A stretch of DNA of 18,787 nucleotides, taken from positions 1-18,787 of the IMG/VR virus record IMGVR_UViG_2778261532_000018, one strand, 5' to 3'. The stretch's first letter is position 1, and every line of letters starts with the position of its first letter. Source of the DNA: a virus (taxonomy: Duplodnaviria; Heunggongvirae; Uroviricota; Caudoviricetes). A program made the position numbers and the translations under genes. Of the stretch, positions 1 to 15,129 are shown piece by piece. The notes beneath the pieces were generated by a model. That model did not search any database, was not told the DNA's origin, and saw only the letters and a list, made by a program, of their open reading frames with translations.

Positions 1-411
1 ATGGATCAGGTAGTCATTTTTAAACAAATATTTGATAAAGTTCGAAACGATTTAAACTATCAATGGTTTTATTCTGAGCTAAAACGTCACAATGTCTCAC
101 ATTACATTTACTATTTAGCCACAGAGAATGTTCATATTGTATTAAAAAATGATAATATAGTGTTATTAAAGGGCCTAAAAAACATTGTGTCTGTCAAATT
201 TTCAAAGGATAGGCATCTTATAGAAACGACCTCTAATAAGCTGAAATCCAGAGAGATCACATTTCAGGAATACAGAAGAAACCTTGCTAAAGCAGGAGTT
301 TTTCGGTGGGTTACAAATATCCACGAACAAAAAAGATATTACTATACCTTTGATAAATCATTACTCTTTACTGAAAACATACAGAGCACATCACAAATAT
401 TTCCACACTAA
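1..411 (+). CDS. DUF1398-family (YbcV-like) prophage protein; ORF starts exactly at window edge so may be 5' partial
   Basis: 136-aa ORF on the strand opposite the lysis cassette, the position lambda uses for bor; resembles E. coli DLP12 YbcV as I recall it. Confidence 0.4.
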
Positions 412-709
412 ACCATAACGTCCGGTTTCTTCTACCCCAGCACCGGACTGGCTGACATGAAGAGCAACCCCGCGTTCAGTTGACGTGTTAATAACCCGGT
501 GTACATCGTTTTTGATTATTCCCCCACACTTGTGCAGAAGGAGTTCCCCGTCGGGCTACGGTCATGGTTAATGCGGGAATACAGCGACGATACAGCGCAT
601 TATGTGTCAGGCTTGAATACCTTTATCCGTTAAAAGGGATATCAGTTAAGTTATCCTGCGTAGGGTATAAGCCATTATCAAGCCCACCCGTAGATAGGCT
701 TTGTAATGG

Positions 710-967
710 CTACTTCGCTTTTGCTTCCGCTCGCTTACGCCGGCGCTCTTCTTTCCTCTCGGCTTTTGCCATGTCCATGAATGCCTGCATGATCGAGTTC
801 CGCATCATGTAGCTAACAAAGTGATGATTGACACAGCCGTTGAGGCGCAGCTGCTCGCCAAACTCATCCACCGAGGCCAATGCTTCCATCATGCCCTTCT
901 CGCCTTTCATGAACTCTGAGAAGTCGCGCCCCGCTCTGGAGGCGCATTCAATGACACGATCAATCAT
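710..967 (-). CDS. Hypothetical protein, translationally coupled to upstream KilA-N gene (possible C-terminal part of a split antirepressor-like gene)
   Basis: 85-aa ORF whose ATG overlaps the stop of the 964-1461 ORF in an ATGA motif (964-967). Confidence 0.35.
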   Translation of the reverse strand: MIDRVIECASRAGRDFSEFMKGEKGMMEALASVDEFGEQLRLNGCVNHHFVSYMMRNSIMQAFMDMAKAERKEERRRKRAEAKAK

Positions 968-1461
968 CCCGGAAGCCCGGGGATCGTAATCTGCAGCTGG
1001 TTAGCCAGGGAGTTAATCTCAGCGACCAACACTGGCTTCGTATAGCGCCATGCTGCCAGCCCTTGTCCGCAGAAGCTCGCCATGTCTTTCTTCTGGTCAA
1101 ACTCATGACATTTCATGTTGAGCTGCGCACTTAAGCTGTTGCGATGCTGAAGTTCTCCGGTGAAGTAGTCATCGAGGACTTTATAGGCCGCGTACTTGAA
1201 CCCGGGGTTTAGCCATGCTGCATAATCATAAGCAACAAACTTCCCGCCATATGTTCCACCGTGTACACCGCGCTCAGTAAAAACCACAGATTCGTGGTTT
1301 TTCTCCAGCTCGGCTAAGAACTCTTTGGTCTGCTTGTTTCGCAGGTAGTAGTACGGAGATTCAGATTCACTTTTACCACTGGCTTTCCACATATCAGTGA
1401 GGCAGATCATGCCATCTTCACCGATACGAATTGGTTGATTGAAGAGGGTTAATGATTTCAT
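964..1461 (-). CDS. KilA-N domain-containing protein
   Basis: 165-aa ORF, N-terminus MKSLTLFNQPIRIGEDGMICLTDMWKASGK resembles KilA-N/antirepressor N-terminal domains; ATG at 1461 with AGGT upstream. Confidence 0.5.
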   Translation of the reverse strand: MKSLTLFNQPIRIGEDGMICLTDMWKASGKSESESPYYYLRNKQTKEFLAELEKNHESVVFTERGVHGGTYGGKFVAYDYAAWLNPGFKYAAYKVLDDYFTGELQHRNSLSAQLNMKCHEFDQKKDMASFCGQGLAAWRYTKPVLVAEINSLANQLQITIPGLPG

Positions 1462-1575
1462 AGCGTATACCTACTCTTTGAAATGAACCTTTGCCGCACA
1501 GGAAACCAGCCCACCGAGGCTCGCCAGCACTAACTGGTATCCTCAAAGGCCCATTCCAAAGGGGCAGGTTCGGTG

Positions 1576-1602
1576 TAAAAAAACATGCGTTGCGGTACGC
1601 AT
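1576..1602 (-). terminator. Intrinsic terminator (second of tandem pair downstream of Rz)
   Basis: Minus strand reads ATGCGT-ACCGCA-ACGCAT followed by GTTTTTTT. Confidence 0.6.
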
Positions 1603-1609
1603 TTATTGC

Positions 1610-1632
1610 AAAAAAGCCCCGCATCGCGAGGC
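1610..1632 (-). terminator. Intrinsic terminator (first of tandem pair downstream of Rz)
   Basis: Minus strand reads GCCTCGC-GAT-GCGGGGC followed by TTTTTT. Confidence 0.6.
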
Positions 1633-1664
1633 TCATTAAATGGACTTTGTGATTTGCAAAAAAA

Positions 1665-1919
1665 TTATTTCAGGCATTGCGTCCTGATGTACTCCTGCAT
1701 TTCGATAGTCGCGTTAGCATCAGCAAGCTCCTTTGTATATCTGGCGTCGAGTTCTGCTACATCATGTTGACGCTTCTGCATGTCAGCGATTGTGGATGTG
1801 GCCTTATCGCGCTGCTCTTTGTAGGTAATGGCGTTATCACGGTAATGATTAACAGCCCATGACAGGCAGACGATGATGCAGATAACCAGAGCGGAGATAA
1901 TCGCGGTTACTCTGCTCAT
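1665..1919 (-). CDS. Rz: Rz i-spanin, internally shortened (84 aa versus about 153 aa in lambda)
   Basis: N-terminal 65-70 aa match lambda Rz including the TM segment ([34 protein letters not shown]); C-terminus resembles the lambda Rz end; the central region is absent. ATGA overlap with R stop. Confidence 0.75.
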
Positions 1920-2392
1920 ACCTCAATCTCTCTGACCATTCCGCCAGCTTCTTTGAATTTTGCAATCAGGTTGTCAGCCTTATGCTCGAACTGACCATAA
2001 CCAGCCCCCGGCAGTGAAGCCCAGATATTACTGCAACGGTCGATTGCCTGACGAATATCACCGCGGTCAATCATCGGTAAAGCGCCACGCTCTTTAATCT
2101 GCTGCAATGCCACAGCATCCTGACTTTTGGGAGAGAAGTCTTTCAGGCCAAGCTGCTTGCGATAGGCATCCCACCAACGGGAAAGAAGTTGGTAACGTCC
2201 GGCGGCTGTTGATTTGAGTTTTGGGTTTAGCGTGACAAGTTTGCGAGGGTGATCGGAGTAATCAGTGAATAGCTCTCCTCCTACAATGACGTCATAACCA
2301 TGATTTCTGGTTTTCTGACGTCCGTTATCAGTTCCCTCTGACCACGCCAGCATATCGAGGAACGCCTTACGTTGATTATTGATTTCCACCAT
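1916..2392 (-). CDS. R: Endolysin R (lytic transglycosylase)
   Basis: 158-aa product essentially matches lambda R ([45 protein letters not shown]...); start overlaps the end of S as in lambda. Confidence 0.95.
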
Positions 2393-2699
2393 CTTCTACT
2401 CCGGCTTTTTTAGCAGCGAAGCGTTTGATAAGCGAACCAATCGAGTCAGTACCGATGTAGCCGATGAACACGCTCGTTATATAAGCGAGATTGCTACTTA
2501 GTCCGGCGAAGTCGAGAAGGTCACGAATGAACCAGGCGATAATGGCGCACATCGTTGCGTCGATTACTGTTTTTGTAAACGCACCGCCATTATATCTGCC
2601 GCGAAGGTACGCCATTGCAAACGCAAGGATTGCCCCGATGCCTTGTTCCTTTGCCGCGAGAATGGCGGCTAACAGGTCATGTTTTTCTGGCATCTTCAT
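2376..2699 (-). CDS. S: Holin S (class I, dual-start S107/S105)
   Basis: 107-aa product matches lambda S ([39 protein letters not shown]...); the ATGAAGATG dual start motif is present. Confidence 0.95.
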
Positions 2700-2941
2700 G
2701 TCTTACCCCCAATAAGGGGATTTGCTCTATTTAATTAGGAATAAGGTCGATTACTGATAGAACAAATCCAGGCTACTGTGTTTAGTAATCAGATTTGTTC
2801 GTGACCGATATGCACGGGCAAAACGGCATGAGGTTGTTAGCGCAGCCTCCTGCCACCTGCTTTCACGAAGGTCATATGTAGAAGGCCGCAGCATAACTAT
2901 CACTGATGAATTCAGGATAGCCAGTGGCTACGGCTTAGTTA

Positions 2942-3017
2942 TGGTGCTGGTTAACGGACTTGAACCGCTACCCATTCGCTTACAAGGCGACGGCTCTACC
3001 ATTGGAGCTAAACCAGC
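2942..3017 (-). tRNA. tRNA, predicted anticodon UGU (Thr)
   Basis: Manual cloverleaf on minus strand: acceptor GCTGGTT/AACCAGC 7/7 bp, D stem GCTC/GAGC, anticodon stem 4/5 bp with loop CTTGTAA, T arm AGCGG-TTCAAGT-CCGTT, discriminator A, encoded CCA. Confidence 0.6.
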
Positions 3018-3022
3018 ATATT

Positions 3023-3097
3023 TGGCGGGACAGCGTGGACTCGAACCACGATAAGAAGGTTAACAGCCTTCCGTAATGACCTTTATACGACTGACCC
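3023..3097 (-). tRNA. tRNA-like gene, predicted anticodon GUU (Asn-like); weaker fold
   Basis: Minus strand: anticodon arm GAAGG-CTGTTAA-CCTTC and T arm CGTGG-TTCGAGT-CCACG with loops identical to E. coli tRNA-Asn as I recall it; discriminator G, encoded CCA; one U-U mismatch each in acceptor and D stems; 4-nt variable loop. Confidence 0.45.
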
Positions 3098-3099
3098 AA

Positions 3100-3187
3100 A
3101 TAAAAAAGCCACCGTTGCAACTTAAGAGTCACTAACGGCAGCTTATGCGAATAGTGTTGCTCATTTGCTCAATGATGTCAACACGTT
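3100..3187 (-). promoter_or_regulatory. Candidate late promoter / Q-utilisation region with leader hairpin
   Basis: Immediately downstream of the Q stop; TTGACA on minus strand at 3176-3181, no convincing -10; hairpin CCGTT...AACGG (3112-3137) followed by a T-run on the minus strand. Assignment is by position. Confidence 0.25.
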
Positions 3188-3676
3188 CTATGCTACATGT
3201 TTAATTTTCTCTACACGTTTCCGGTTTTTAAACGCACTATCCAGAACCGGGCAAATCATAAACAACGAGGCATTAAGGATTTCGTCAACTTCCCGTCGAC
3301 AGGTTGCGAGCGATGGTTTTTGAATGCGCCCGCCGCCACGGCATAACATCTTGCGAGGTCTTGCGACGCGATGATAGTAAGATGCAATGGCGTGCTTGGA
3401 AGAACCATGAGCGTAGTAGCTGAGGAGGATGCCAAAGGCTTTCTTGTCAATGCACATGACGGAATCGACGACCTGAGAAATCAACATTCCATCATCATCA
3501 TTGCACATTGGCCTTGTCATAACTCTTCCCGGCTCTACGCTCTCCATGAACTTCGCTATTACGCTGCTCATACGCTTTTCCAGACGACCTGAATAAACCC
3601 ATGCGCCCCACAGTTCAAGCCAGCCATTCAGCCACTCATGCTGTTCTTTGGTGAGGTTTAGTTCTCTTATGCCCAC
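3188..3676 (-). CDS. Q: Late-gene antiterminator Q (non-lambda Q family, phage 82/21/933W-like)
   Basis: 162-aa ORF directly upstream of the late promoter/tRNA/S region; unrelated to lambda Q but resembles Q proteins of other lambdoid phages as I recall them. Confidence 0.7.
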
Positions 3677-4338
3677 GCGCCTTCTCCCTGTACCTGAATC
3701 AATGTGAGATTTCCGCAGAACACTGCGCCGGTATCGATATACATCTGGTTGGCAAATTTGAGTGGTTTCACTGCTGGCGTATGACCAAAGATGAACGTGT
3801 CCGCGCCTTTAATTTCTTTCACGATCCCGTCTTGTGAGTTGCTGATTCGTTTGCGGTTCCAGATTACCTGCTGATGATCAACTGGCTTTCCAAACTCGTA
3901 TTCGTCAAAGGGATAATCGGCGTGGCAGATAACATATTTTTTATCTTTGCTCACCAGTTCGATGATTAACGGAAGTTCTTCTGCTTTATGGGCAAGAGCT
4001 TTAGCCAGAATTTCTTTGTCGTAATCGAGATTAAAGAACCAGCCACCGCCATTAAGCAGCCAGTGATTGACGTTTCCACGCTCTGATAAGCCATCAATCA
4101 TCATGTGCTCATGGTTTCCACGTACAGCTCTGAACCAGGGGAATGTGATTAATTCCAGGCATTCAACGTTCTCTGCACCACGATCAACCAAATCGCCCAC
4201 CGAGATAAGCAGGTCTTTTTTGTTGTCGAATCCAATCGTATCCAGTTTGTTCATCAGGTTCGTGTAGCATCCGTGCAGATCGCCAACTACCCAAATATTT
4301 CGGTATTTGCTGCCATCAATTCTTTCGTAGATATTCAT
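3667..4338 (-). CDS. ninI: Ser/Thr protein phosphatase NinI (lambda PPase, calcineurin-like)
   Basis: 223-aa product with GDLHG and GNHE metallophosphatase motifs; near-identical to the lambda phosphatase as I recall; ATGA overlap with ninG stop. Confidence 0.9.
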
Positions 4339-4937
4339 GCAGCCTCACTTCTGCTGTTTCGCAGTTTTTTAAGTTTCTGTTGATACTCCGCCTTGATGGC
4401 CCTGCACTCTTCGACAGTCCAGCGATGGCGGTTATGGTTTGATTCGATTTCGTCTACTGCTTCCTGCCCGATGCGGTTAATCAGTTCGACGCGATACGGA
4501 ACGAGATTTCCGCTTTTATGTTGGTTGCACACCACGCATTGCTTGTGAATATTGCGTTCATCAAATCGGAGTTGAGGCGCCGCAGCAGTTGTCCGGTAAT
4601 GCCCGGCATCCCACTGAGCAGACGTGAGCGTTCCGCACGAGATACATGGTAAGTCGCGGTCTCTTTCTCTGATGAAGGCGTTTACGGCTTGTTGGGCTTG
4701 TTTAATCCAGTAACTGCGGGGCTTTAAGGCGAGTTTTCGAATCTTAAGTTTATCTTTCTGTCTCTGATCCTCTCGTCGTCGTTTCTTCTCTGCTGCTTTT
4801 TCCGCTTTTTCGCGTTCTTTGCTTCGTCGTTCGAGTGCTATCTTTGTTCCACAAATCTCATTACACCAATATTGATTTTGATATTTTGGTATAAACCATT
4901 CATTGCAACATTTACATTTCCTTCGATAGATTCGCAT
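4335..4937 (-). CDS. ninG: NinG (Rap) recombination protein with recoded N-terminus
   Basis: ATG at 4937 preceded by AGGAG; product [15 protein letters not shown]... becomes lambda-NinG-like from [18 protein letters not shown] onward; the first ~30 codons are AT-rich and divergent. Confidence 0.8.
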
Positions 4938-5478
4938 AAGTGCTCCTTTCGTTGCCGGAAAAATCACCGTAATACTTATCTCGGGCTTCTTCAGCAACTA
5001 GTACCGCTAACTCCAGATCATCAAAGCATCCGAAGTGTTTACTCTTGCCATGGAAACCTAGCCTAACATTCCATTTTTTCTGTCGTTTGTGCCAAGTAAC
5101 TCCTCTGCAACCTGATTTGCTATTCTTTCGGATCCTTATATTTCTTGAATTTTCTATTGGCAGGCATTCTCTTAAATTTTCTGGCCTATTGTCGGTCCTA
5201 ATTCCATTAACGTGGTCAATTTGACCAGCAGGCCAACGATTATGAGTTATGTAAAAAACTAAGACGTGAGTTTTATATCTACGCCCATCAATCATGATCA
5301 TTGAATAACCGTTGGAATCAAAAGTTCCAGCAACACTATTTAATGCTATCCTTCCCTGAGTGGGAACTTTCCATCTAAATACACCGGTAGATTTATCGAA
5401 ACTTAGTAACTCAAATATCCTTTTAACAGTTAAATCTTCTCTTTTACGGTTACATCGTCTTCGCGCTGGTTTAGCCAT
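4912..5478 (-). CDS. HNH homing endonuclease (HNH_3 plus AP2-like DNA-binding domain) fused to the native ninG start
   Basis: 188-aa ORF; first 9 codons MAKPARRRC sit at the normal ninF/ninG junction; then HNH motif ([16 protein letters not shown]) and AP2-like segment ([27 protein letters not shown]); AT-rich. Confidence 0.75.
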
Positions 5479-5647
5479 CGTCTTCTTCCTCGTACATTGA
5501 GCTATTCGGATCGCTCATCAGTTCTGCGCAGCAATCGGAGCACACGTGAACTTCCAGCACATGCAGCTTCTGACCGCAGTTAGCGCACGTTAAAGCTCGC
5601 TCGACGCTTTCTTTCTGGTATTGAAGGGATTGGGATTGGCTAAGCAT
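5471..5647 (-). CDS. ninF: NinF
   Basis: Product from [36 protein letters not shown]... matches lambda NinF as I recall it; start chosen at the internal ATG 5647. Confidence 0.8.
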   Translation of the reverse strand: MLSQSQSLQYQKESVERALTCANCGQKLHVLEVHVCSDCCAELMSDPNSSMYEEEDDG

Positions 5648-6047
5648 GGATTTCACCATTAAAAAGTCGCTTGTAAGCATCAATGTCTCGTTTTGCTTCA
5701 CCGAGCTTTCGTCTTAATTCCATGTTTTCTGATTCAAGCTTTTCCATGTCTTGTTGGTATCGATCGCGGTGTTCTTTCCATGCTTTTTGATACGCCTTCA
5801 TGTATGTCGTATTGGCCTTTCTCTTTGCCTGACGAACCGCATGGTGGTTTTTCACAAACCAGTCAGGGTCGTTAAATGCTGCTCTGGCGCAGGTATACCA
5901 ATAATTTGTTGCCTCCCTGTTTAGCCAATAAATACTGATAAATGGCAACCGGATAGACACCATTTTTCGTTGTGACTCTTTCTCGCCAAACATGTGTCCT
6001 TTTTTGATGCTAAGGCCAAATCCAGGTTGAATTAAAAGCATTGTCAT
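5640..6047 (-). CDS. Hypothetical nin-region protein (slot between ninE and ninF, where P22-like phages carry ninX)
   Basis: 135-aa ORF whose ATG overlaps the ninE stop (ATGA); charged, probably coiled-coil C-terminus; no lambda counterpart recalled. Confidence 0.5.
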
Positions 6048-6220
6048 TTCCTCGCACGTTCTCTAAGCCACCGGATATCCCACAGGTGAGCCGTGTAGTT
6101 GAAGGTTTTTACGTCAGATTCTTTTGGGATTGGCTTGCGTTTATTTCTGGAGCGTTTCGTTGGAAGGTATTTGCAGTTTTCGCAGATGATGTCGGTGATA
6201 CTTCGTCGCTGTCGTCTCAT
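6044..6220 (-). CDS. ninE: NinE
   Basis: Manually translated 58-aa ORF, below the 60-aa cutoff of the ORF track: [58 protein letters not shown]; ATGA overlaps on both sides. Confidence 0.7.
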
Positions 6221-7062
6221 GACGCATCCTCAAAATTAAATCCAAGCTGACATGAAAATGCTTCACATGATTCAGAACACGAACCTGAATCATACTGTCG
6301 CATTGATGTCATTCTTGAGGCTAACTCATCTCTTGATATATCACTAAACAAGGCAATCAGTGATTTAAGTGTATTATTCCCTCGATACATAACCGGTTCC
6401 TTTCCTGTTTTTATTTCTGTATCAAGGATGTTGATAAATGCATCTGCAAGTTCTGGCTCATCCATGGCTGCCAGCGCCACCTTTTGCATACTTTTTTTTA
6501 TGCAGAAAACACAATTACCAAGATGCTCCTGTATGCCAAGATCAAACTTCTGCTCACTCCACCAATCAAGCACATCCTGTTTTTCAAAATCGCTTATATC
6601 AGCCAGGTACCGAAAACCATTAGCCCTTTTAAGCCTGTTTGGTTCATCTGTGCGAATGCCAAGCCATGTGATGTAATTTCCTTTCCCAAACTTTTCCTGA
6701 CAATATTTGGTGAATGGAACAGACTTCATTCTGTCGGTACAGAACGCACCGCCGATATATGGATGTCCGTATTTATTCAACATCCTTTTCCACGGTATAA
6801 GATCTGGACCAATATCATTGACACCTATCTCTTCATAACTACTGGCCTTCCCCATTTCTGGATTAGGTATTACACGAAGGCAATGTAAGTCTATTTTCCA
6901 GTTACTGACGATATTTCGGATGAACTCATATGTTTTAGGGTGCTCTGCCCCTGTATCCATGAAAACGTAATGCACGTCTTCACCTGCCTGTCGCTTTTGC
7001 TCCATTAGCCAGAGCAAATATGCTGACGTCCTGCCACCTGAGAAACTAACGACATTTATCAT
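6217..7062 (-). CDS. ninC: NinC (PAPS-reductase-like protein)
   Basis: Product from [24 protein letters not shown]... matches lambda NinC as I recall it; start at internal ATG 7062 overlapping the methyltransferase stop, not the extended track start 7152. Confidence 0.85.
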
Positions 7063-7586
7063 GCAGCCCTCCTGACACCCTGCCCGATCGCCATCAATGC
7101 CGCTTTGGATACGGTAGTAAACATCCGTCGAGGACTGATGAACGGTCGCCAAATCAGCAGCATGGAGCCTTTGCTGTTTCCCTTCTTCTCCAGCCCCGTC
7201 GATGGTTCGATAAAATTAATCCGTCCATCAGTGATAATACGAACTTCGTCAACACTCTCCAGAGCCTTGCTGAACCATCCGACAGACATATCCTCTGGCA
7301 CAAGCATCACTACCGTCTGTCGTTGTTGTATGCACTGCTCAGCGGCTTTTTCCACCCACGGCCTGATATTGCTGTACGGTGGGTTATTCCAGATTGCACC
7401 GTGGCTTACCCACTCAGAATTGAGCGCGTCGTCGGCCTCAGTTAGCCAGTGAGCACACAGAGCATTTTTGTCGCTCGCTGCCGAATCCAGCCAGAATCCA
7501 AACTCAATATCCAGTGCATCAAAAAGCCAAAGCGGCGTTTGCCAGCAGTCCTTGTCGTGTGCTGGCGTATTTGATTTGATAGTCAT
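7059..7586 (-). CDS. Phage DNA N6-adenine methyltransferase (Dam-like)
   Basis: 176-aa product from MTIKSNTPAHDKDCWQTPLWLFDALD... with NPPY catalytic motif (IWNNPPYSN); ATGA overlaps with ninB stop and ninC start. Confidence 0.7.
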   Translation of the reverse strand: MTIKSNTPAHDKDCWQTPLWLFDALDIEFGFWLDSAASDKNALCAHWLTEADDALNSEWVSHGAIWNNPPYSNIRPWVEKAAEQCIQQRQTVVMLVPEDMSVGWFSKALESVDEVRIITDGRINFIEPSTGLEKKGNSKGSMLLIWRPFISPRRMFTTVSKAALMAIGQGVRRAA

Positions 7587-8023
7587 GCAGCCCGATCTCC
7601 CCATCTCGCTTTCCACTCCAGAGCCAGTCTCGCTTCGTCTGACCACTTAACGCCACGCTCTGTACCGAATGCCTGTATAAGCTCTAATAGCTCCGCAAAT
7701 TCGCCTACACGCATCCTGCTGGTTGACTGGCCTATTACCACAAAGCCATTCCCGGCAAGGTTAGGAACAACATCCTGCTGCTTTAATGCTGCGGTAAACA
7801 CACACTTCCAGCTTTCTGCATCCAGCCAGCGACCATGCCATTCAACCTGACGAGAGACGTCACCAAGGCAAGCCCAAAGCTTTCGGTTTTGGTCTAAGCT
7901 GCGGTTGCGTTCCTGAATGGTTACTACGATTGGTTTGGTTGGGTCTGGAAGAATTTGCTGTACTGCGTGAATAGCGTTTTGCTGATGTGCTGGAGATCGA
8001 ATTTCAAAGGTTAGTTTTTTCAT
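7583..8023 (-). CDS. ninB: NinB recombination protein
   Basis: Product from MKKLTFEIRSPAHQQNAIHAVQQILPDPTKPIVVTIQERNRSLDQNRKLWACLGDVSRQVEWHGRWL... matches lambda NinB as I recall it. Confidence 0.9.
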   Translation of the reverse strand: MKKLTFEIRSPAHQQNAIHAVQQILPDPTKPIVVTIQERNRSLDQNRKLWACLGDVSRQVEWHGRWLDAESWKCVFTAALKQQDVVPNLAGNGFVVIGQSTSRMRVGEFAELLELIQAFGTERGVKWSDEARLALEWKARWGDRAA

Positions 8024-8037
8024 GACTTCCCTCTCCC

Positions 8038-8071
8038 CCAAATAAAAAGGCCTGCGATTACCAGCAGGCCT
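8038..8071 (-). terminator. Intrinsic terminator between ren and ninB (tR2-like position)
   Basis: Minus strand: AGGCCTGC-TGGTAATC-GCAGGCCT followed by TTTTTATTT. Confidence 0.65.
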
Positions 8072-8096
8072 GTTATTAGCTCAGTGATGTAGATGG

Positions 8097-8387
8097 TCAT
8101 CTTTTAACTCCATATACCGCCAATACCCGTTTCATCGCGGCACTCTGGCGACACTCCTTAAAAATCAGGTTCGTGCTCATCTTTCCTTCCCGTTCTTCCC
8201 TGGTAGCAAACCGGTAATACACCGTTCGCCAGACCTTACCTTCGATAACCAGAAGACCTGCCCGTGCCATTTTAGCCGCGGCCTGATTTATGCTGGTTAC
8301 TGTTGCGCCTGTTAGCGCGGCAACGTCCGGCGCACAGAAGCTATTATGCGTCCCCAGGTAATGAATAATTGCCTCTTTGCCCGTCAT
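8097..8387 (-). CDS. ren: Ren
   Basis: 96-aa product MTGKEAIIHYLGTHNSFCAPDVAALTGATVTSINQAAAKMARAG... matches lambda Ren as I recall it. Confidence 0.9.
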   Translation of the reverse strand: MTGKEAIIHYLGTHNSFCAPDVAALTGATVTSINQAAAKMARAGLLVIEGKVWRTVYYRFATREEREGKMSTNLIFKECRQSAAMKRVLAVYGVKR

Positions 8388-9085
8388 ACACTTGCTCCTT
8401 TCAGTCCGAACTTAGCTTTGAGTTCTGCGATCTTCGCCAGAGCCTGTGCACGATTTAGAGGTCTACCGCCCATGACAGGAAGTTGTTTTACTGGTTCAGG
8501 GATCGCCTCACCACGGTTAATTCTCGCAGTCATATGGACAAGCTCATCTGCGGCCTTACGGCGTAATTCCGCATCAGTAAGCGCATTGGCCCGCATGTTC
8601 TGATACAGGTTGGTAACCAGCCAGTAGTGCGCGTTTGATTTCCACGGATAAGACTCCGCATCCGGATACAGGCCTCGCTTCCGGCAATACTCGTAAACCA
8701 TATCAACCAGCTCGCTGACGTTTGGCAGTCCGGCGATAACGGATGCTTCTTCCCGGCACCATGCAACAAACTGCCCGGGTGATGGCAGAAATGGTCGATT
8801 CTGCCGACGGGCTACGCGCATTCCTGCGTTAACCTGTTCCATTGTGGTGATCCCGTTTTCCCGGAAAGCCAGCACCCACTGGCGGCGGATTTCGTTCAGT
8901 TCGTTCTGGTCCCGGTTAGCCAGGCTCGCCGGGAAAGTTGCCAGTAACTGGCTGAACACACCATTGATGATCTGCGCTACCTGTTGTACCTGCGGCTTTT
9001 CGTCGTACTGTTCCGGCATGTTGTTGGCGATCCGACGCATCTGCTCACGGTCAAAGTTAACCATCTGTGCGGCGATGTTTTTCAT
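8384..9085 (-). CDS. P: Replication protein P (DnaB helicase loader)
   Basis: 233-aa product MKNIAAQMVNFDREQMRRIANNMPEQYDEKPQVQQVAQIING... matches lambda P as I recall it. Confidence 0.95.
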   Translation of the reverse strand: MKNIAAQMVNFDREQMRRIANNMPEQYDEKPQVQQVAQIINGVFSQLLATFPASLANRDQNELNEIRRQWVLAFRENGITTMEQVNAGMRVARRQNRPFLPSPGQFVAWCREEASVIAGLPNVSELVDMVYEYCRKRGLYPDAESYPWKSNAHYWLVTNLYQNMRANALTDAELRRKAADELVHMTARINRGEAIPEPVKQLPVMGGRPLNRAQALAKIAELKAKFGLKGASV

Positions 9086-9981
9086 AGATCCACCCCGTAA
9101 ATCCAGTCTGTGTTTGTCAGGTCGAGTTTTGGTTTGCTGGCTATCACGCCTGCCTGTTGCTTGTTACGGTTGATTTCGAGTTGGGTCCACTTATCGCGGA
9201 GTTTGGCCGGGCTCAGCACGTTACCGGACCAGAAGTTGTCCTGGCAGGCCCAGCGGAAAAGCACACACATATCGCGGTGGTTACGTCCGTCACGTTCACG
9301 CATCAGGCGGATATCGTTAGCCCACCCAGCAAAATTCGGTTTTCTGGCTGATGGCGCGATGGTCTTCACCATGTCAAACATCCACTCTGCGGCGGTCAGG
9401 TCTTCTGCTGTTCCCCACTTGCTGCCGCTCTGAATTGCAGCATCCGGTTTAACCACAGAAAGATCGTTTTCTGGCTGGTCAGAGGATTCGCCAGAATTCT
9501 CTGACGAATAATCTTTTCTTTTTTCTTTTGTATTAGTGTCTTTTGTGTTCCCCTGTTTTGAGGGATAGCAATCCCCCAATTTGAGGGATGTTTTATCCCT
9601 CGTTTTAGGGGGTTTTCCCTCGTTTTGAGGGATACACCATTCTGAGATGTTTTTATTTGGTCCAAACATGCCGCCTTGCTGCTTGATAATATTCATTCTG
9701 ACGAGTTCTAACTTGGCTTCATTGCACCGTTTAACAGGTAACTTTGTAATCTCGCTAAGTTGAGAATCGGTGATTCTGTCCATTGGTTTATTCCACCCAT
9801 AGGTTTTACGCAGAATGGCAAGCAGCACTTTAAACTGTCGCTTGGTCAGATCTGCGCCTGAATAAGCCTCAAGCAGCATATTTGATAGTCTGGCGTAACC
9901 ATCATCGAGATCTGCCACATTACGCTCCTGTCCGGCAAAGTTACCTCGGCCGAAGTTGAGTATTTTTGCTGTATTTGTCAT
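9082..9981 (-). CDS. O: Replication initiator O
   Basis: 299-aa product MTNTAKILNFGRGNFAGQERNVADLDDGYARLSNMLLEAYSGADLTKRQFK... matches lambda O; contains the ori iterons. Confidence 0.95.
   Translation of the reverse strand: MTNTAKILNFGRGNFAGQERNVADLDDGYARLSNMLLEAYSGADLTKRQFKVLLAILRKTYGWNKPMDRITDSQLSEITKLPVKRCNEAKLELVRMNIIKQQGGMFGPNKNISEWCIPQNEGKPPKTRDKTSLKLGDCYPSKQGNTKDTNTKEKRKDYSSENSGESSDQPENDLSVVKPDAAIQSGSKWGTAEDLTAAEWMFDMVKTIAPSARKPNFAGWANDIRLMRERDGRNHRDMCVLFRWACQDNFWSGNVLSPAKLRDKWTQLEINRNKQQAGVIASKPKLDLTNTDWIYGVDL
9495..9635. repeat. ori-lambda: four ~18-bp iterons (9550-9634) plus adjacent AT-rich region (about 9495-9545) inside O
   Basis: Four copies of a TCCCTC-N6-GAGGGA type inverted motif at ~22-bp spacing, flanked by an A/T-rich stretch. 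Confidence 0.85.
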
Positions 9982-9984
9982 AAT
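9956..9984 (+). promoter_or_regulatory. pO promoter for OOP RNA
   Basis: -35 TTGAGT (9956-9961), 17-bp spacer, -10 CATAAT (9979-9984). Confidence 0.6.
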
Positions 9985-9991
9985 GACTCCT

Positions 9992-10068
9992 GTTGATAGA
10001 TCCAGTAATGACCTCAGAATTCCATCTGGATTTGTTCAGAACGCTCGGTTGCCGCCGGGCGTTTTTTA
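9992..10068 (+). ncRNA. oop: OOP antisense RNA ending in the lambda t0 terminator
   Basis: Sequence from GTTGATAGATCCAGTAATGACC to GCCGCCGGGCGTTTTTT matches the lambda oop/t0 region as I recall it; overlaps the 3' end of cII on the opposite strand. Confidence 0.8.
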
Positions 10069-10310
10069 TTGGTGAGTCCATCAAGCGCATACTTAAAAGC
10101 CCTGCTAATCGGACTGATGTCTGATGCCATTCCGAAAGCACACAAGACCGAAGCAATAAATCTCCAGTCCGTTCTGCTTATCTTCGATTCATGACAGCCA
10201 ATCATCTTTGCCAAACCGCGCTGTGTAAGCGTTGACAGGTTGATGAGTAAATCTGTTTCTGCGCGATCAACGTCGCGCTGTGATAGTTTGCTGTAACTTG
10301 TTTGTTCCAT
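10014..10310 (-). CDS. cII: CII-type lysogeny activator (P22 c1-like N-terminal part, lambda CII-like C-terminus)
   Basis: 98-aa product; the C-terminal TNKKRPAATERSEQIQMEF matches lambda CII, the N-terminal two thirds does not. Confidence 0.8.
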   Translation of the reverse strand: MEQTSYSKLSQRDVDRAETDLLINLSTLTQRGLAKMIGCHESKISRTDWRFIASVLCAFGMASDISPISRAFKYALDGLTNKKRPAATERSEQIQMEF

Positions 10311-10324
10311 TTCTTACTATTTCC

Positions 10325-10366
10325 ATAGGTAAATAATCACTAATACTCATCTTTCGATGAGTGATT
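10325..10366 (-). terminator. Candidate tR1 hairpin between nutR and cII
   Basis: Minus strand AATCACTCATC-GAAA-GATGAGT...AGTGATT nested hairpin followed by a moderately T-rich tail. Confidence 0.4.
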
Positions 10367-10374
10367 AATTAGTT

Positions 10375-10410
10375 ACCGCGTTGTCGGCGGTGCAGATTGA
10401 TAAAGAGCGG
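10375..10410 (-). promoter_or_regulatory. nutR (boxA plus P22-type boxB)
   Basis: Minus strand boxA CGCTCTTTA (10401-10409), then boxB ACCGCCGACAACGCGGT (10375-10391), directly after the cro stop. Confidence 0.65.
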
Positions 10411-10419
10411 ATCCGCTTA

Positions 10420-10635
10420 TTAAGCGGTTTTGTGTTCCGGTGGGAACACGTCATCAAGACTGACTTTTGCGCCTAACTTGTTTAGGCACGCAACAAGAGC
10501 ACGGCATGTTTTAAGGTCTGGGAAGCGACGACCAGATTCCCAATGTCCGATAGCTCCCTGTGTGCATCCAACCGCCTTAGCAAGTGTTGTTTGAGAGATA
10601 TTCAGTGACTCTCGATATTTTCGTAGGTTGCTCAT
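10420..10635 (-). CDS. cro: Cro-like repressor (HTH), heterologous immunity
   Basis: 71-aa product MSNLRKYRESLNISQTTLAKAVGCTQGAIGHWESGRR... with HTH; ATG at 10635 preceded by GGAGGG; divergent from cI across an operator region. Confidence 0.8.
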   Translation of the reverse strand: MSNLRKYRESLNISQTTLAKAVGCTQGAIGHWESGRRFPDLKTCRALVACLNKLGAKVSLDDVFPPEHKTA

Positions 10636-10752
10636 ATGCCCTCCATAGTAACCATGAAACAATAATACGATATGTACTTTTGGAATGCAAACAAAAAATA
10701 CATCTTGTGCATGGATGGTTTTAGTACAGAGCGTAATAATAAGGATATGAAA
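10636..10752. promoter_or_regulatory. OR region with divergent PR and PRM and operator-like 13-bp motifs
   Basis: PR on minus strand: -35 TTGCAT (10685-10690), 17-bp spacer, -10 TATTAT (10662-10667). Motif copies ATACGATATGTAC (10665-10677) and GTACAGAGCGTAA (10724-10736) overlap the PR -10 and a putative PRM -10 (TAATAA 10734-10739). Confidence 0.6.
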
Positions 10753-11406
10753 ATGAAATGGTATGAACTGGCTAGATCCAGAATGAAAGAACTCGGCATA
10801 ACTCAAGAGAAGTTAGCTGAAGAGCTTGGTATGACGCAGGGTGGAATTGGTCACTGGTTGCGCGGATCTCGTCATCCATCTCTTGACGAGATTGGTATGG
10901 TGTTTAAATACCTTGGTATTGATAACGTCTCGTTCAACCACGACGGTACATTTTCACCTGTTGGCGAATACTCATCTGCCCCCGTTAAAAAACAATATGA
11001 GTACCCTGTTTTTTCTCATGTTCAGGCCGGGATGTTCTCGCCTGAGATTAGAACCTTTACCAAAGGTGATGCGGAGAGATGGGTAAGCACAACCAAAAAA
11101 GCCAGTGATTCTGCATTCTGGCTTGAGGTTGAAGGCAACTCAATGACAGCGCCGGCAGGATTGAAACCAAGTTTTCCTGATGGAATGTTAATCTTGGTTG
11201 ACCCTGAACAACCTGTTGATCCTGGTGATTTCTGTATCGCTAGACTTGGTGGTGATGAATTCACATTCAAAAAACTGATCAAAGATAGTGGGCAAGTGTT
11301 TTTGCAACCACTCAACCCGCAGTTTCCAATCATCCCATGCAATGAGAACTGCAACATTGTAGGCAAGGTTATCGCCAGTCAATGGCCTGAAGAGACGTTT
11401 GGGTGA
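10753..11406 (+). CDS. cI: CI repressor (heterologous HTH N-domain fused to lambda-type S24 autocleavage C-domain)
   Basis: C-terminal ~130 aa from [17 protein letters not shown]... to [12 protein letters not shown] match lambda CI as I recall it; N-terminus is different. Start 10753 preferred for SD spacing (alternative ATG 10747; track ORF starts at 10672). Confidence 0.9.
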
Positions 11407-11472
11407 TATATGTGAAATGCATATATTGATATAAATGCAGCAATATCAAATAGTTAAAAGGTTATATTTTTA

Positions 11473-11853
11473 ATGAATGATCTTGATAAGAAAAAGTACG
11501 ACCAAGTTATTGATTCTGTGAACTTCGCCCTTAGATCGTTGTCAGAGTTATTCGAAGCCCATGGAATGCATGGGATGTATGATCTAACGAATCCAAGCCT
11601 TGATGAGCTAAAATTAGTGTTTACAAGGATGAAAAACGGTGTTGACTCTATTGCTCAAAGCTTTGAGCACATGGTAGAGACAGCAAAGGATATGGATGCC
11701 GCAAGTGCAAGCATAAATGTTATGAACATCAAACAAGGATTGATGTATGCTGAATCACTATTGCTTGCTGTAGAGAAATTAGACTATGATAAATGTGTGG
11801 AAGCAAATACGCAGATAAAAACCCACGATCTTCCACCAACCCAATGGCCTTAA
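11473..11853 (+). CDS. Hypothetical protein in the rexAB slot downstream of cI (unrecognised, AT-rich)
   Basis: 126-aa ORF, no hydrophobic segment, acidic; AAAAGG 11 nt upstream of ATG; codon usage markedly more AT-rich than neighbouring lambda-type genes. Confidence 0.6.
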   Translation: MNDLDKKKYDQVIDSVNFALRSLSELFEAHGMHGMYDLTNPSLDELKLVFTRMKNGVDSIAQSFEHMVETAKDMDAASASINVMNIKQGLMYAESLLLAVEKLDYDKCVEANTQIKTHDLPPTQWP

Positions 11854-11922
11854 TAGTAAATCAAGATTTCATATAGTCTATTTGAACTAGGCTAGTACCA
11901 TAAAATAAACCGAGGAAACGCA

Positions 11923-12024
11923 ATGAAAACCATGTCCACTCTGCACAAAGATGCAATGACCCTGAGATCTCTCATTAACGAGATTCTGGCTCGCTCGTCA
12001 GCACACACCAAAAAAGCCGCATAA
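11923..12024 (+). CDS. Small ORF (33 aa, basic) preceding the immunity-region terminator
   Basis: Manually translated: MKTMSTLHKDAMTLRSLINEILARSSAHTKKAA; GAGGAA SD 6-7 nt upstream; below the ORF-track length cutoff. Confidence 0.3.
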   Translation: MKTMSTLHKDAMTLRSLINEILARSSAHTKKAA

Positions 12025-12035
12025 TGCCTACATAA

Positions 12036-12061
12036 CCCGGCCTCAGCGCCGGGTTTTCTTT
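12036..12061 (+). terminator. Intrinsic terminator at the end of the cI-distal operon (tIMM-like position)
   Basis: CCCGGC-CTCAGC-GCCGGG followed by TTTTCTTT. Confidence 0.7.
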
Positions 12062-12199
12062 GCCTCACGATCCCCACACCTAATAACACCATAACCAATT
12101 GTATTTATTGAAAAATTGACAGATACAACTTGCTAAACAGTGCAATTCTGATCCCTCACCTACCAAACAATGTACCCCTGCAAAAAATAAATCCATAAA

Positions 12200-12273
12200 A
12201 TACAATATGTTATAAAAAACCAACAACATTTAGAACATTTTGTATTGACTAAATAAAGTACACATCGTACTAT
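12200..12273 (+). promoter_or_regulatory. OL/pL region with operator-like motifs
   Basis: -35 TTGACT (12245-12250), 17-bp spacer, -10 TACTAT (12268-12273); motif copies ATACAATATGTTA (12200-12212), a weaker copy on the opposite strand (12235-12246) and GTACACATCGTAC (12258-12270) overlapping the -10. Confidence 0.55.
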
Positions 12274-12316
12274 TTAGCCATCAGCAGGAAGCTGGAAGCC
12301 AAACGGAACAGATTGG

Positions 12317-12353
12317 CGGGCTCTTTAACTTCGATGGGGCGCTGACAAAGCGC
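12317..12353 (+). promoter_or_regulatory. nutL (boxA plus P22-type boxB)
   Basis: boxA-like GGCTCTTTAAC (12319-12329) then boxB hairpin GCGCTGACAAAGCGC (12339-12353). Confidence 0.7.
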
Positions 12354-12472
12354 AAACAGATACCAAACGAGATGGGTTTGGCGGTGATGTGAATTGCAGC
12401 TGCAACGACAGCAACCAGAAGATCAGCATCTGGCGCATCACCACCAAAGCCATTTCACATGAGGAAAACATC

Positions 12473-12781
12473 ATGACGGTAATCGTGTACGGGAAATCAA
12501 CATTCGCAGGAAATGCCAAAACTCGCCGTCATGAGCGGCGCAGAAAGCTGGCCATCGAGCGTGATTCCATCTGCAACATCATCGATTCGATCTTCGGAAC
12601 AGACAGCGAGGAACCTGTTCAGAAAGACACGAGAAAGCGTTTAAGCCTTTCTGAAAAAGCAATATCACTCGGCAACATTCGTAACCAAAATACCGACGAA
12701 TGCAGTGGAAGTATTTGCCTGCCAAACGTAGCCATTTACGCGGCAGGCTACCGGAAATCAAAACAACTGACGGCGAGGTAA
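12473..12781 (+). CDS. N: Antiterminator N (P22 gene 24-like, arginine-rich motif)
   Basis: Product from MTVIVYGKSTFAGNAKTRRHERRRKLAIERD... ; arginine-rich motif matches P22 N as I recall it; GAGGAA SD; start is the internal ATG of the track ORF. Confidence 0.85.
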   Translation: MTVIVYGKSTFAGNAKTRRHERRRKLAIERDSICNIIDSIFGTDSEEPVQKDTRKRLSLSEKAISLGNIRNQNTDECSGSICLPNVAIYAAGYRKSKQLTAR

Positions 12782-12783
12782 TT

Positions 12784-13200
12784 ATGGATTTAAGTAAATT
12801 AGAAAGCTCCTTGGAAGCATCAGTAAAAAATTTTATATCAGTAATTGATGAAAAAACTGAAGATATTAAGAAAGCAACTATTGCAGAACTTATTCAAACA
12901 AGAGCCAGTACATTTGATCATCTTCCTGATGATGTCCGGTCAGCGGCAATTCATTTATATGTTACAGCGCTAAGCAATATTGAACCCCCAATTGATGAAG
13001 AATCAAGAGATATTCAGAAAAAACGGTTTGAGATGTTAGCCAGCAACATTATCGCTGGTTTCACACAACTCTTAACAAAAGAGCCTGCCAGTGAGGCTGT
13101 TCGCCAGCAGGCTCAGGTAATGATTAATCAGGCAGAAACTATTTCACGTGAGCGAAAAGCATTTGATAAATCGGTTTCTGAACTTCCAACACCTCAATAG
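12784..13200 (+). CDS. Hypothetical protein immediately downstream of N (unrecognised, AT-rich)
   Basis: 138-aa product from MDLSKLESSLEASVKNFISVIDEKTEDIKK...; ATG 2 nt after the N stop with GAGGT upstream; no hydrophobic segment. Confidence 0.55.
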   Translation: MDLSKLESSLEASVKNFISVIDEKTEDIKKATIAELIQTRASTFDHLPDDVRSAAIHLYVTALSNIEPPIDEESRDIQKKRFEMLASNIIAGFTQLLTKEPASEAVRQQAQVMINQAETISRERKAFDKSVSELPTPQ

Positions 13201-13393
13201 CAGCCGCTGAACCTTCCTTCTCAACAAACTTAATAACTTCATCAAGATGCTTTTTTGCATGTGATGATTGCTCAGGCGGCATAGCAGAAACTATCGAAAT
13301 GATTGCTTGCTGGAGCGCGAGGTTTTCAGTGCTCAGTTTTGAAACTCTGTCGTTTAAATCCTCAATGACTTTAACAAGAGATACATCTGACAT
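13139..13393 (-). CDS. Hypothetical protein, convergent with and overlapping the 3' end of the 12784-13200 gene
   Basis: 84-aa product from MSDVSLVKVIEDLNDRVSKLSTENLALQQ...; strong AAGGAG SD 5 nt upstream of the ATG at 13393. Confidence 0.45.
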   Translation of the reverse strand: MSDVSLVKVIEDLNDRVSKLSTENLALQQAIISIVSAMPPEQSSHAKKHLDEVIKFVEKEGSAAAIEVLEVQKPIYQMLFAHVK

Positions 13394-13404
13394 GTGAACT
13401 CCTT

Positions 13405-13454
13405 CTTTTGACTGTGGAAACAACAGTCTACCCATTTCCTTTGACTGTGGAAAG
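13405..13454. repeat. Two direct repeats with identical 14-bp core TTTGACTGTGGAAA (13407-13420 and 13440-13453)
   Basis: Read directly; 33-bp period; the proximal copy lies immediately upstream of the SD of the 13139-13393 gene. Confidence 0.8.
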
Positions 13455-13513
13455 TGAAGGAACCACCGAGCCTGATGTGGTTAAAAGACAGGCATACGAA
13501 TAAACACTGCACT

Positions 13514-13541
13514 GTGTATTCATTCCAACGAGTGAATACAC
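13514..13541. repeat. Perfect 9-bp inverted repeat GTGTATTCA / TGAATACAC with 10-nt spacer
   Basis: Read directly from sequence; no flanking T-run. Confidence 0.75.
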
Positions 13542-13603
13542 GGAGCAATGTCGCTCGTAACTAAACAGGAGCCGACTTGTTCTGATTATTGGAAATCTTC
13601 TTT

Positions 13604-13629
13604 GCCCTCCAGTGTGAGGGCTTTTTTAT
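13604..13629 (+). terminator. Intrinsic terminator upstream of cIII (tL-type)
   Basis: GCCCTC-CAGTGT-GAGGGC followed by TTTTTTA. Confidence 0.65.
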
Positions 13630-13690
13630 ATGCATACCAATAACGCTTCACTCGAGGCGTTTTTCGTTATGTATAAATAAGGAGCACACC

Positions 13691-13855
13691 ATGCAATATG
13701 CCATTGCAGGGTGGCCTGTTGCTGGCTGCCCTTCCGAATCTTTACTTGAACGAATCACCCGTAAATTACGTGACGGATGGAAACGCCTTATCGACATACT
13801 TAATCAGCCAGGAGTCCCAAAAAATGGATCAAACACTTATGGCTATCCAGACTAA
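13691..13855 (+). CDS. cIII: CIII (FtsH inhibitor)
   Basis: 54-aa product [54 protein letters not shown] matches lambda CIII; AAGGAG SD. Confidence 0.95.
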   Translation: MQYAIAGWPVAGCPSESLLERITRKLRDGWKRLIDILNQPGVPKNGSNTYGYPD

Positions 13856-13967
13856 ATTCACTATCGCCACTTTTATTGGCGATGAAAAGATGTTTCGTGA
13901 GGCCGTCGACGCTTATAAAAAATGGATATTAATACTGAAACTGAGATCAGGCAAAAGCATTCACTAA
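13824..13967 (+). CDS. kil: Kil (host killing/FtsZ inhibitor)
   Basis: 47-aa product [47 protein letters not shown] as in lambda; overlaps cIII end and gam start. Confidence 0.85.
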
Positions 13968-14338
13968 CCCCCTTTCCTGTTTTCCTAATCAGCCCGGCAT
14001 TTCGCGGGCGATATTTTCACAGCTATTTCAGGAGTTCAGCCATGAACGCTTATTACATTCAGGATCGTCTTGAGGCTCAGAGCTGGGCGCGTCACTACCA
14101 GCAGATCGCCCGTGAAGAGAAAGAGGCAGAACTGGCAGACGACATGGAAAAAGGTCTTCCACAGCACCTGTTTGAATCACTCTGCATCGATCATTTGCAA
14201 CGCTGCGGGGCCAGCAAAAAAGCCATTACCCGTGCGTTTGATGACGATGTTGAGTTTCAGGAGCGCATGGCAGAACACATCCGGTACATGGTTGAAACCA
14301 TTGCTCACCACCAGGTTGATATTGATTCAGAGGTATAA
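13922..14338 (+). CDS. gam: Gam (RecBCD inhibitor)
   Basis: 138-aa product [36 protein letters not shown]... matches lambda Gam. Confidence 0.95.
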
Positions 14339-14343
14339 AACGG

Positions 14344-15129
14344 ATGAGTACAGCACTCGCAACGCTGGCAGGGAAGCTGGCTGAACGTGTCGGCATGGAT
14401 TCTGTCGACCCACAGGAACTGATCACCACTCTTCGCCAGACGGCATTTAAAGGTGATGCCAGCGATGCGCAGTTCATCGCATTGTTGATCGTCGCCAACC
14501 AGTATGGCCTTAATCCGTGGACGAAAGAAATTTACGCCTTCCCTGATAAGCAGAACGGCATCGTTCCGGTGGTGGGCGTTGATGGCTGGTCCCGCATCAT
14601 CAATGAAAACCAGCAGTTTGATGGCATGGACTTTGAGCAGGACAATGAATCCTGCACATGCCGGATTTACCGCAAGGACCGTAATCATCCGATCTGCGTT
14701 ACCGAGTGGATGGATGAATGCCGCCGCGAACCATTCAAAACCCGCGAAGGCAGAGAAATTACGGGGCCGTGGCAGTCGCATCCCAAACGGATGTTACGGC
14801 ATAAAGCCATGATTCAGTGTGCCCGTCTCGCCTTCGGATTTGCGGGTATCTATGACAAGGATGAAGCCGAGCGCATTGTCGAAAATACCGCATACACTGC
14901 AGAACGTCAGCCGGAACGCGACATCACTCCGGTTAACGATGAAACCATGCAGGAGATTAACACTCTGCTGATCGCCCTGGATAAAACATGGGATGACGAC
15001 TTATTGCCGCTCTGTTCCCAGATATTTCGCCGCGACATTCGTGCATCGTCAGAACTGACACAGGACGAAGCAGTGAAAGCTCTTGGATTCCTGAAACAAA
15101 AAGCCACTGAACAGAAGGTGGCAGCATGA
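14344..15129 (+). CDS. bet: Bet (Red-beta single-strand annealing protein)
   Basis: 261-aa product [48 protein letters not shown]... matches lambda Bet. Confidence 0.95.

Follow-up and report, generated by a model that had tools for sequence, protein, structure and literature searches.

A putative HNH_3-AP2 homing-endonuclease gene with a substitute ninG start in the 5' end of ninG of lambda-like phages

The viral DNA studied here (Caudoviricetes; IMG/VR record IMGVR_UViG_2778261532_000018, positions 1 to 18,787), called the window in the following, comprises 18,787 nucleotides and represents part of a lambda-like prophage, with all relevant genes on the minus strand. At the junction of ninF and ninG, it carries an AT-rich block, here called the cassette, which encodes most of a predicted HNH nuclease and a second, divergent start of ninG. 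An earlier note, made from the sequence alone, had read this arrangement as the insertion of a homing endonuclease, and the comparisons described below make this the probable interpretation.

A foreign block replaces part of the 5' end of ninG

The best match to the whole window, the prophage PEC41 (79% coverage), has a rusA module where ninG would be, and lambda and phage HK630 were therefore chosen as the empty-site references for the alignment of the minus strand. The nuclease open reading frame (ORF) is headed by the ribosome-binding site, the ATG, and the first nine codons of ninG, and it offers no other candidate start. The retained coding segment, ATGGCTAAACCAGCGCGAAGACGATGTAA (5478-5450, 29 nt), matches the ninG start of both lambda and HK630 at 29 of 29 positions, and the stop codon of ninF shares bases with the ATG (ATGGCTAA) in the same way as at the lambda ninF/ninG junction. 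The homology to lambda and HK630 is back at TGTGGAAC (4853 downward), which marks the right junction. Between the junctions, 64 bp of lambda ninG (nt 30-93) are swapped for a block of 596 bp, whose GC content is 37.3%, compared to 48.9% for the ninG body and 47.6% for ninF. On the evidence of the alignment, the block is a replacement at a sharply defined site and not an ordinary separate gene. The statement in the earlier note that MAKPARRRC is the N-terminus of lambda NinG is borne out by the lambda and HK630 sequences, and its range for an AT-rich insertion of about 600 bp, 4850-5478, was right to within a few bases. The boundaries, the base composition, and the family matches of the locus all exceed what chance would give.

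The final 110 bp of the cassette provide a Shine-Dalgarno site, a new ATG, and 28 divergent codons, from which ninG is read as a separate ORF that overlaps the 3' end of the nuclease gene. The resulting product of 200 amino acids is 90% identical to lambda NinG overall and matches the NinG profile (Pfam ID PF05766) over model positions 5-192 of 193, which is the full length, with an E-value of 4e-84. The cysteine cluster of NinG is kept, with C8, C11, C25, and C29 corresponding to C9, C14, C28, and C32 of lambda. With these features, ninG stays intact as an ORF, and the allele may be functional. The substitute 84 nt show 55 matches to nt 1-93 of lambda ninG, with a GC content of 28.6% versus 50.5%.

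The start at ATG 4937 with an AGGAG motif inside the nuclease 3' end, and the course of the protein from about 30 AT-rich, divergent codons to a lambda-like body, had been described in the earlier note much as we find them, namely as AAAGGAG at 4943-4949 and as 28 codons with 28.6% GC ahead of a body identical to lambda at 499 of 519 nucleotides. The note had also called this start recoded. A replacement start is indeed present, but it is a divergent copy (about 50% identical at the protein level and 59% at the DNA level), probably foreign, and no synonymous rewrite.

The sequence around the nuclease stop codon, AAATGTAA (4912-4919, substitute copy), is positionally homologous to that at the left junction, CGATGTAA (5450-5457, lambda-type ninG), so that a copy of the ninG start lies on either side of the nuclease core, the two having diverged from each other. 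These are not a recent duplication, because the first 29 nt are purely lambda-type and the substitute start is far diverged. A donor of the substitute N-terminus was sought with tblastn in phages, with a word-indexed search of 5.8 billion proteins, and with an exhaustive phmmer search over 1.84 billion representatives. None of the three revealed a donor lineage, their matches being confined to the allele of the cassette and to zinc-ribbon repeat proteins without a relation to it.

An intron-borne endonuclease was ruled out, as no Rfam match was obtained at E-values up to 1 within 4200-6100. An intein was ruled out as well, since a stop codon and a change of frame separate the nuclease ORF from that of NinG. 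On the gene strand, no match to a promoter or terminator belonging to the nuclease ORF was found.

The nuclease resembles HNN-AP2 homing endonucleases

The nuclease ORF matches the HNH_3 family (Pfam ID PF13392) at residues 68-107 with 42.7 bits against a cut-off of 24.8 (E-value 4e-11) and the PHROG family phrog_99, "HNH endonuclease", with an E-value of 1.4e-71. RefSeq annotates it as "HNH endonuclease", and NCBIfam has no match for either the nuclease or NinG. In an alignment of 15 homologues, the residues D88, H89, N101, L102, R103, and N110 are invariant, and the core displays the boxes H..LV, WP, DH (D88-H89), DNR, NLRE (N101), and EN (N110). The boxes described for HNN-AP2 enzymes, H..L.., WP, DH, DNR, NLRE, and EN (PMC2248197), are thus all found here.

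The C-terminal part, residues 123-171, matches the AP2 domain (Pfam ID PF00847) with 22.2 bits, below the gathering cut-off of 33.3 (E-value 1.8e-4), and a precomputed PF00847 match is present in several homologues of the nuclease. A sequence search of solved structures returned just one weak AP2 match and no HNH entry, and a fold search with a predicted model was therefore carried out instead. In the AlphaFold model (predicted local distance difference test score, pLDDT, of 87.8), the AP2-like part consists of strands at residues 127-130, 135-142, and 145-152, followed by a helix at residues 155-173. Its best PDB matches are plant AP2 domains: Foldseek superposes it on PDB ID 1gcc with a root-mean-square deviation (rmsd) of 1.3 Å over 51 columns and a probability of 1.00, and on PDB IDs 7wq5 and 7et5 with an rmsd of at most 2.0 Å and the same probability. 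The best PDB match for the N-terminal half, which may have a beta-beta-alpha-metal fold, is the homing endonuclease I-HmuI (PDB ID 1u3e), with a probability of 1.00, an E-value of 0.012, and a TM-score of 0.37-0.40 over 109 columns.

Taken from profiles, conserved residues, and the modelled fold, the nuclease ORF is a member of the HNH_3/"HNN" plus AP2 family, of the His-Me finger type, with a predicted metal-dependent nicking or cleavage activity. HNH-AP2 proteins are treated as a recognised family of phage homing endonucleases in PMC10448857, which cites Magnani 2004, and in PMC2248197. The earlier note had the ORF run on into an HNH motif and an AP2-like segment; the former now scores above its cut-off, the latter is sub-threshold in Pfam with a fold that matches AP2, and of the catalytic residues D88, H89, N101, and N110 all came through the careful alignment. 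AP2 domains have been reported to prefer GC-rich sites (PMC10448857), and the contrast between the displaced lambda stretch (50% GC) and its substitute (29% GC) fits this preference, which is suggestive only.

Most other homologues in the alignment start near residue 14-16 of the nuclease and stop near residue 175. Both ends of the window protein, namely the nine codons taken from NinG and the tail over the new ninG start, are therefore additions to a core of about 160 residues.

Gene order and features of the window

The features of the locus and the surrounding genes are listed in Table 1. Two tRNA genes on the minus strand, Thr (tgt) at 2942-3017 and Asn (gtt) at 3023-3097, lie between Q and the holin gene, and the related PEC41 prophage has the identical tRNA pair. 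The window is devoid of ninH, with the ninG stop codon overlapping the ATG of the phosphatase gene (4335-4338); lambda and HK630 have ninH in between, and other cassette-bearing loci carry ninH or other genes at this spot.

Table 1. Genes and features at and around the ninF-ninG junction of the window
Feature	Position	Strand	Evidence or remark
ninB	7583-8041	minus	First in transcription order among the genes listed
Dam-type methyltransferase	7059-7646	minus	After ninB
NinC-like PAPS reductase	6217-7152	minus	After Dam-type methyltransferase
ninE	6044-6220	minus	After NinC-like PAPS reductase
NinX-family ORF	5640-6047	minus	After ninE
ninF	5471-5701	minus	Pfam NinF, E-value 1.5e-13; alignment with lambda and HK630
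Nuclease ORF, 188 aa	4912-5478	minus	Begins MAKPARRRC; between ninF and ninG
Retained lambda-type ninG start, ATG and 9 codons (left junction)	5450-5478	minus	Alignment with lambda and HK630
Foreign AT-rich cassette, 596 bp	4854-5449	minus	Alignment with lambda and HK630
Nuclease core, residues 68-113	5140-5277	minus	HNH_3 match and invariant columns
AP2-like DNA-binding domain (predicted), residues 122-173	4960-5115	minus	Sub-threshold Pfam match, AlphaFold model, Foldseek
New ninG Shine-Dalgarno site AAAGGAG	4943-4949	minus	Read from sequence; inside nuclease 3' end, 5 nt before ATG
Complete ninG (rap), 200 aa, from ATG 4937	4335-4937	minus	Pfam NinG; RefSeq start identical
Substitute ninG 5' end, 84 nt (ATG 4937, 28 codons)	4854-4937	minus	28.6% GC
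Overlap of nuclease 3' end and new ninG 5' end, 26 nt	4912-4937	minus	ORF positions; different frames
Lambda-like ninG body	4335-4853	minus	499/519 nt (96%) identical to lambda
Ser/Thr phosphatase	3667-4338	minus	After ninG
Q	3188-3676	minus	After phosphatase; followed by two tRNA genes and lysis genes

One conserved cassette in variable surroundings

The comparison covered 60 cassette loci, of which 52 came from IMG/VR and seven from other E. coli or phage sequences, with the window as the sixtieth. The junctions are identical throughout, and the block measures 596 bp in 59 loci, the exception being one block of 595 bp. The mean pairwise identity is 99.6% for the cassette and 95.7% for the ninG body, and about 60% of the locus pairs have unrelated flanks, with an identity of less than 90% in the 300 bp preceding ninG or the 500 bp following it. 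Upstream, the cassette gene follows either ninF or non-coding DNA together with a 1773-bp gene on the opposite strand, a replacement that reaches up to 14 nt before the ATG; downstream, the phosphatase gene, ninH, or other genes are found.

Nucleotide diversity is 0.004 in the cassette and rises from 0.014 to more than 0.06 with distance into ninG, the common polymorphisms beginning nine bases beyond the right junction. There are 16 cassette haplotypes versus 32 of the ninG body. Clonal sampling and ordinary recombination could contribute to this pattern of diversity. The retained 29-nt ninG start shows one singleton variant among 59 loci. The nuclease ORF is intact in 59 of the 60 loci, and its variants comprise 10 synonymous and 11 non-synonymous changes, the frequent ones being synonymous except T52A.

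Some individual loci deserve mention. In about 41 of the 60 loci (for example, L001 3700-5983, which is phage AU6Stx1, and L006, L007, L008, and L010), ninF and ninX are replaced by non-coding DNA with tandem TTTCTA hexamers and the 1773-bp hypothetical gene on the opposite strand. The substitution W24L in NinG (codon 24, window positions 4866-4868) occurs in 7 of 59 loci, and a singleton N101S affects an invariant residue of the nuclease. Locus L063 has a 1-bp deletion, PK8241 carries an IS3 element where the nuclease gene adjoins ninG, and L013 has an insertion sequence (IS) element in ninG. A prophage of E. coli UMNF18 (L004 10848-11450) contains, between ninB and the Dam methyltransferase gene, a gene for a NUMOD4-domain protein that is absent from the window. 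As this prophage has the ninG cassette too, its nin region may hold two genes of the homing-endonuclease type.

Distribution of the cassette, its empty site, and its relatives

Of 5426 complete E. coli genomes, 538 contain the cassette, with 571 occurrences in all, each at least 95% identical, where the RefSeq annotation reads "HNH endonuclease | recombination protein NinG". At least 926 E. coli genomes have the lambda-type junction without interruption, and the empty site also occurs in lambda, HK630, and VT1-Sakai. Among lambdoid phages, the insertion at ninG that the earlier note had proposed is polymorphic, being present or absent at one fixed site. The substitute N-terminus is found in exactly the same 538 E. 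coli genomes as the nuclease gene, and in the phage collection it occurs solely together with this gene. Further occurrences are the Stx1 phages AU6Stx1 and SH2026Stx1, and the nuclease protein is on record from Salmonella. In one metagenome (3300045988), an exact-pattern scan found the cassette allele (L038) and the uninterrupted allele (L072, L075) on different viral contigs.

The collection of 5.8 billion proteins holds no relative of the nuclease between 99% and 44% identity. The closest relatives, at 40-44% identity, are free-standing "HNH homing endonucleases" of lytic phages, among them L064, P0004, and P0007, whose settings lack ninG. On a T7-like contig (L081 1033-1927), a relative with 44% identity directly follows the gene for the T7-type endonuclease I, a junction resolvase; the window nuclease also sits in a junction-resolvase gene (ninG/rap), a parallel that is possibly a coincidence. 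A tblastn search of SH2026Stx1 (MG986485.1) with the nuclease protein gives two matching places, and this phage may therefore possess, at another position, a further HNH-AP2 gene that is more distantly related.

A probable homing cassette and the alternatives

We consider it probable that the cassette is a free-standing homing-endonuclease gene (HEG) of the HNH_3 ("HNN") plus AP2 type, which resides within the 5' end of ninG and would be self-immune through its own copy of the target, with cleavage and homing as activities predicted from the family and from the population pattern. A recent spread by recombination into different ninG alleles would fit the clone-like conservation of the cassette in many backgrounds, the increase of diversity away from it, and the fact that nuclease and substitute start are strictly linked.

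Homing could take place when a phage with the cassette shares a cell with a replicating lambdoid phage or prophage that lacks it and itself replicates there, with the enzyme being made from the delayed-early nin transcript. The enzyme would nick or cut lambda-type ninG in or near nt 30-93, and the break would be repaired by recombination, with ninF and some 30 nt of ninG serving as the left homology arm and the body of ninG as the right one, which would copy the cassette into the cut genome. The ninG copy of the cassette itself, about 59% identical to the target, would escape recognition and thereby provide self-immunity. We infer the cutting, repair, and immunity steps from the intronless homing of phage T4. 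The cassette probably arose once. Illegitimate recombination may have fused a nuclease gene located upstream of a foreign, AT-rich ninG homologue to a lambda-type ninG at codon 9, an event in which the nuclease would have lost its own start and acquired that of ninG.

Several points weigh against homing. Ordinary recombination between lambdoid prophages alone could place one conserved block in many contexts. The protein and phage searches revealed no donor lineage with a similar ninG N-terminus, and a few divergent ninG 3' ends also shape the diversity gradient. The AP2 match is below the Pfam threshold, and the E-values from Foldseek, at 0.01-0.1, are weak, which the small size of the two domains would lead one to expect. 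Many of the 538 genomes belong to heavily sampled clones of Shiga-toxin-producing E. coli (STEC), and the genome counts therefore do not represent independent events. Empty sites outnumber occupied ones, the cassette showing no sweep. Finally, all observed occurrences are in temperate phages or their prophages. The nin genes are repressed in the lysogen, and the chances for homing are therefore limited to induction or superinfection.

The strongest alternative is a passive mosaic module, which would explain much of the population pattern. On this view, a single capture by illegitimate recombination brought in the nuclease gene, which would now be inert or in decay and would have spread by ordinary recombination and the clonal expansion of hosts, without any copying driven by the nuclease. 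The nin regions of lambdoid phages are strongly mosaic, as seen in the rusA module of PEC41 at the place of ninG and in the variable contexts of the cassette; STEC clones dominate the sample, and occupied sites are rarer than empty ones. The single-base deletion in L063, the N101S variant, and the IS elements at the PK8241 junction and in ninG of L013 are cases of decay or disruption, and HNN-AP2 genes are said to degenerate after transfer (PMC2248197). However, an accidental insertion that also restores ninG with a Shine-Dalgarno site, an ATG, and an N-terminal module is unlikely, the ORF is intact in nearly all loci with synonymous common variants and conserved catalytic residues, and the diversity of the cassette is 5-10 times below that of the adjacent ninG. 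We therefore regard the passive module as possible but rather unlikely.

A domesticated nuclease that serves the phage appears a good deal more doubtful. It might act as a weapon against competing lambdoid genomes, causing marker exclusion with the copying of the cassette as a by-product, or as a recombination partner of NinG/Rap. The gene is embedded in the nin recombination genes and translationally linked to them, a relative with 44% identity adjoins the gene of a T7-type junction resolvase, and HEG-related nucleases act in conflicts between phages and between phages and satellites (PMC10448857). Yet most lambdoid phages manage without the nuclease, and no sign of an interaction with NinG was seen. 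Cutting rivals at the cassette site would moreover be mechanistically the same as homing, the difference being one of emphasis.

A packaging-type HNH protein that aids the terminase at cos sites, as in HK97-like phages, is hardly credible: the sole support is the general knowledge that such HNH proteins exist in some siphophages, whereas the window gene is a nin-region gene at a great distance from those of the terminase, belongs to the HNH_3 plus AP2 family with relatives annotated as homing endonucleases, and is present in a minority of otherwise similar phages.

Returning to the homing cassette, we tentatively propose that it stands for a distinct HEG lifestyle, in which the element would live inside a coding gene without an intron or intein, take over the translation start of its target, and deliver a cleavage-immune replacement segment with a ribosome-binding site. 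This broader proposal is clearly less certain than the assignment as a HEG. If active, the cassette would generate mosaic joints in the nin region of lambdoid phages, including Shiga-toxin phages, through the action of its nuclease.

Comparison with known systems

Literature searches with limited coverage of subscription journals returned no account of the ninG cassette, of a HEG in the lambdoid nin region, or of the combination of a borrowed and a substitute start. The family, the routine HNH annotation, and genes split by HEGs are already known, and it is the layout that seems to be undescribed. Most work on HEGs concerns lytic phages, for instance T4, T5, and ICP1, and the mosaicism of lambdoid phages is usually attributed to ordinary or illegitimate recombination. 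An active cassette would add a directed, nuclease-driven route of gene exchange in lambda-like phages. Roughly a tenth of the complete E. coli genomes carry the cassette, among them those of O157:H7 and further Shiga-toxin strains. The borrowed start together with the substitute start gives a compact picture of how a selfish gene may live inside a coding sequence at little cost. As lambda carries the presumed target, the hypothesis can be checked by standard lambda genetics, and the enzyme could yield a new site-specific nuclease with an AP2-type recognition domain.

The HNH_3/HNN-AP2 family of homing endonucleases was reportedly defined by Magnani et al. in 2004. The two-domain architecture and the boxes are shared with the HNN-AP2 homing endonucleases of T5, T1, Jersey-like Salmonella phages, and the Xanthomonas phages Xp10, OP1, and Xop411. 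Like the window nuclease gene, these genes of lytic phages are compact and overlap their neighbours. They lie between genes and have their own start codons, whereas the window nuclease gene lies inside a gene, borrows its start, brings a substitute start for that gene, and is found in temperate lambdoid phages.

The closest solved structure, I-HmuI, is an HNH nicking endonuclease from a group I intron of the Bacillus phage SPO1, and its DNA-binding part is not of the AP2 type. We take its active site to be of the HNN type, as in the window nuclease, whose catalytic residues were aligned within the set of homologues. The two proteins share 18% sequence identity, and the window locus is without an intron signal.

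Two further systems concern resident genes that are interrupted or extended by a nuclease gene. According to PMC10448857, mobE of the Aeromonas phage Aeh1 splits nrdA without an intron or intein, and the function of the gene is kept. In Aeh1, two NrdA polypeptides reassemble, whereas ninG in the window donates nine codons to the nuclease and is supplied with a replacement N-terminus. In gene 31 of the P22-like Salmonella phage epsilon34, the N-terminus of the resident gene is fused in frame to an HNH gene. This is another locus, the nuclease is of another lineage, whose relatives are found in Lactobacillus phages, and no substitute copy of the interrupted gene has been reported.

The closest model for the proposed mechanism is the intronless homing of T4, which has been demonstrated for SegF, SegG, and MobE. 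These nucleases are encoded between genes and belong to the GIY-YIG family and to an HNH family other than HNH_3-AP2. In T4, a free-standing nuclease gene lies by or in its target, the allele devoid of the gene is cut, the carrier is protected by nearby differences, and the flanks are co-converted. The diversity gradient around the window cassette is consistent with co-conversion of the T4 type, but here the differences that would protect the carrier are concentrated in a discrete substitute gene start of 84 nt.

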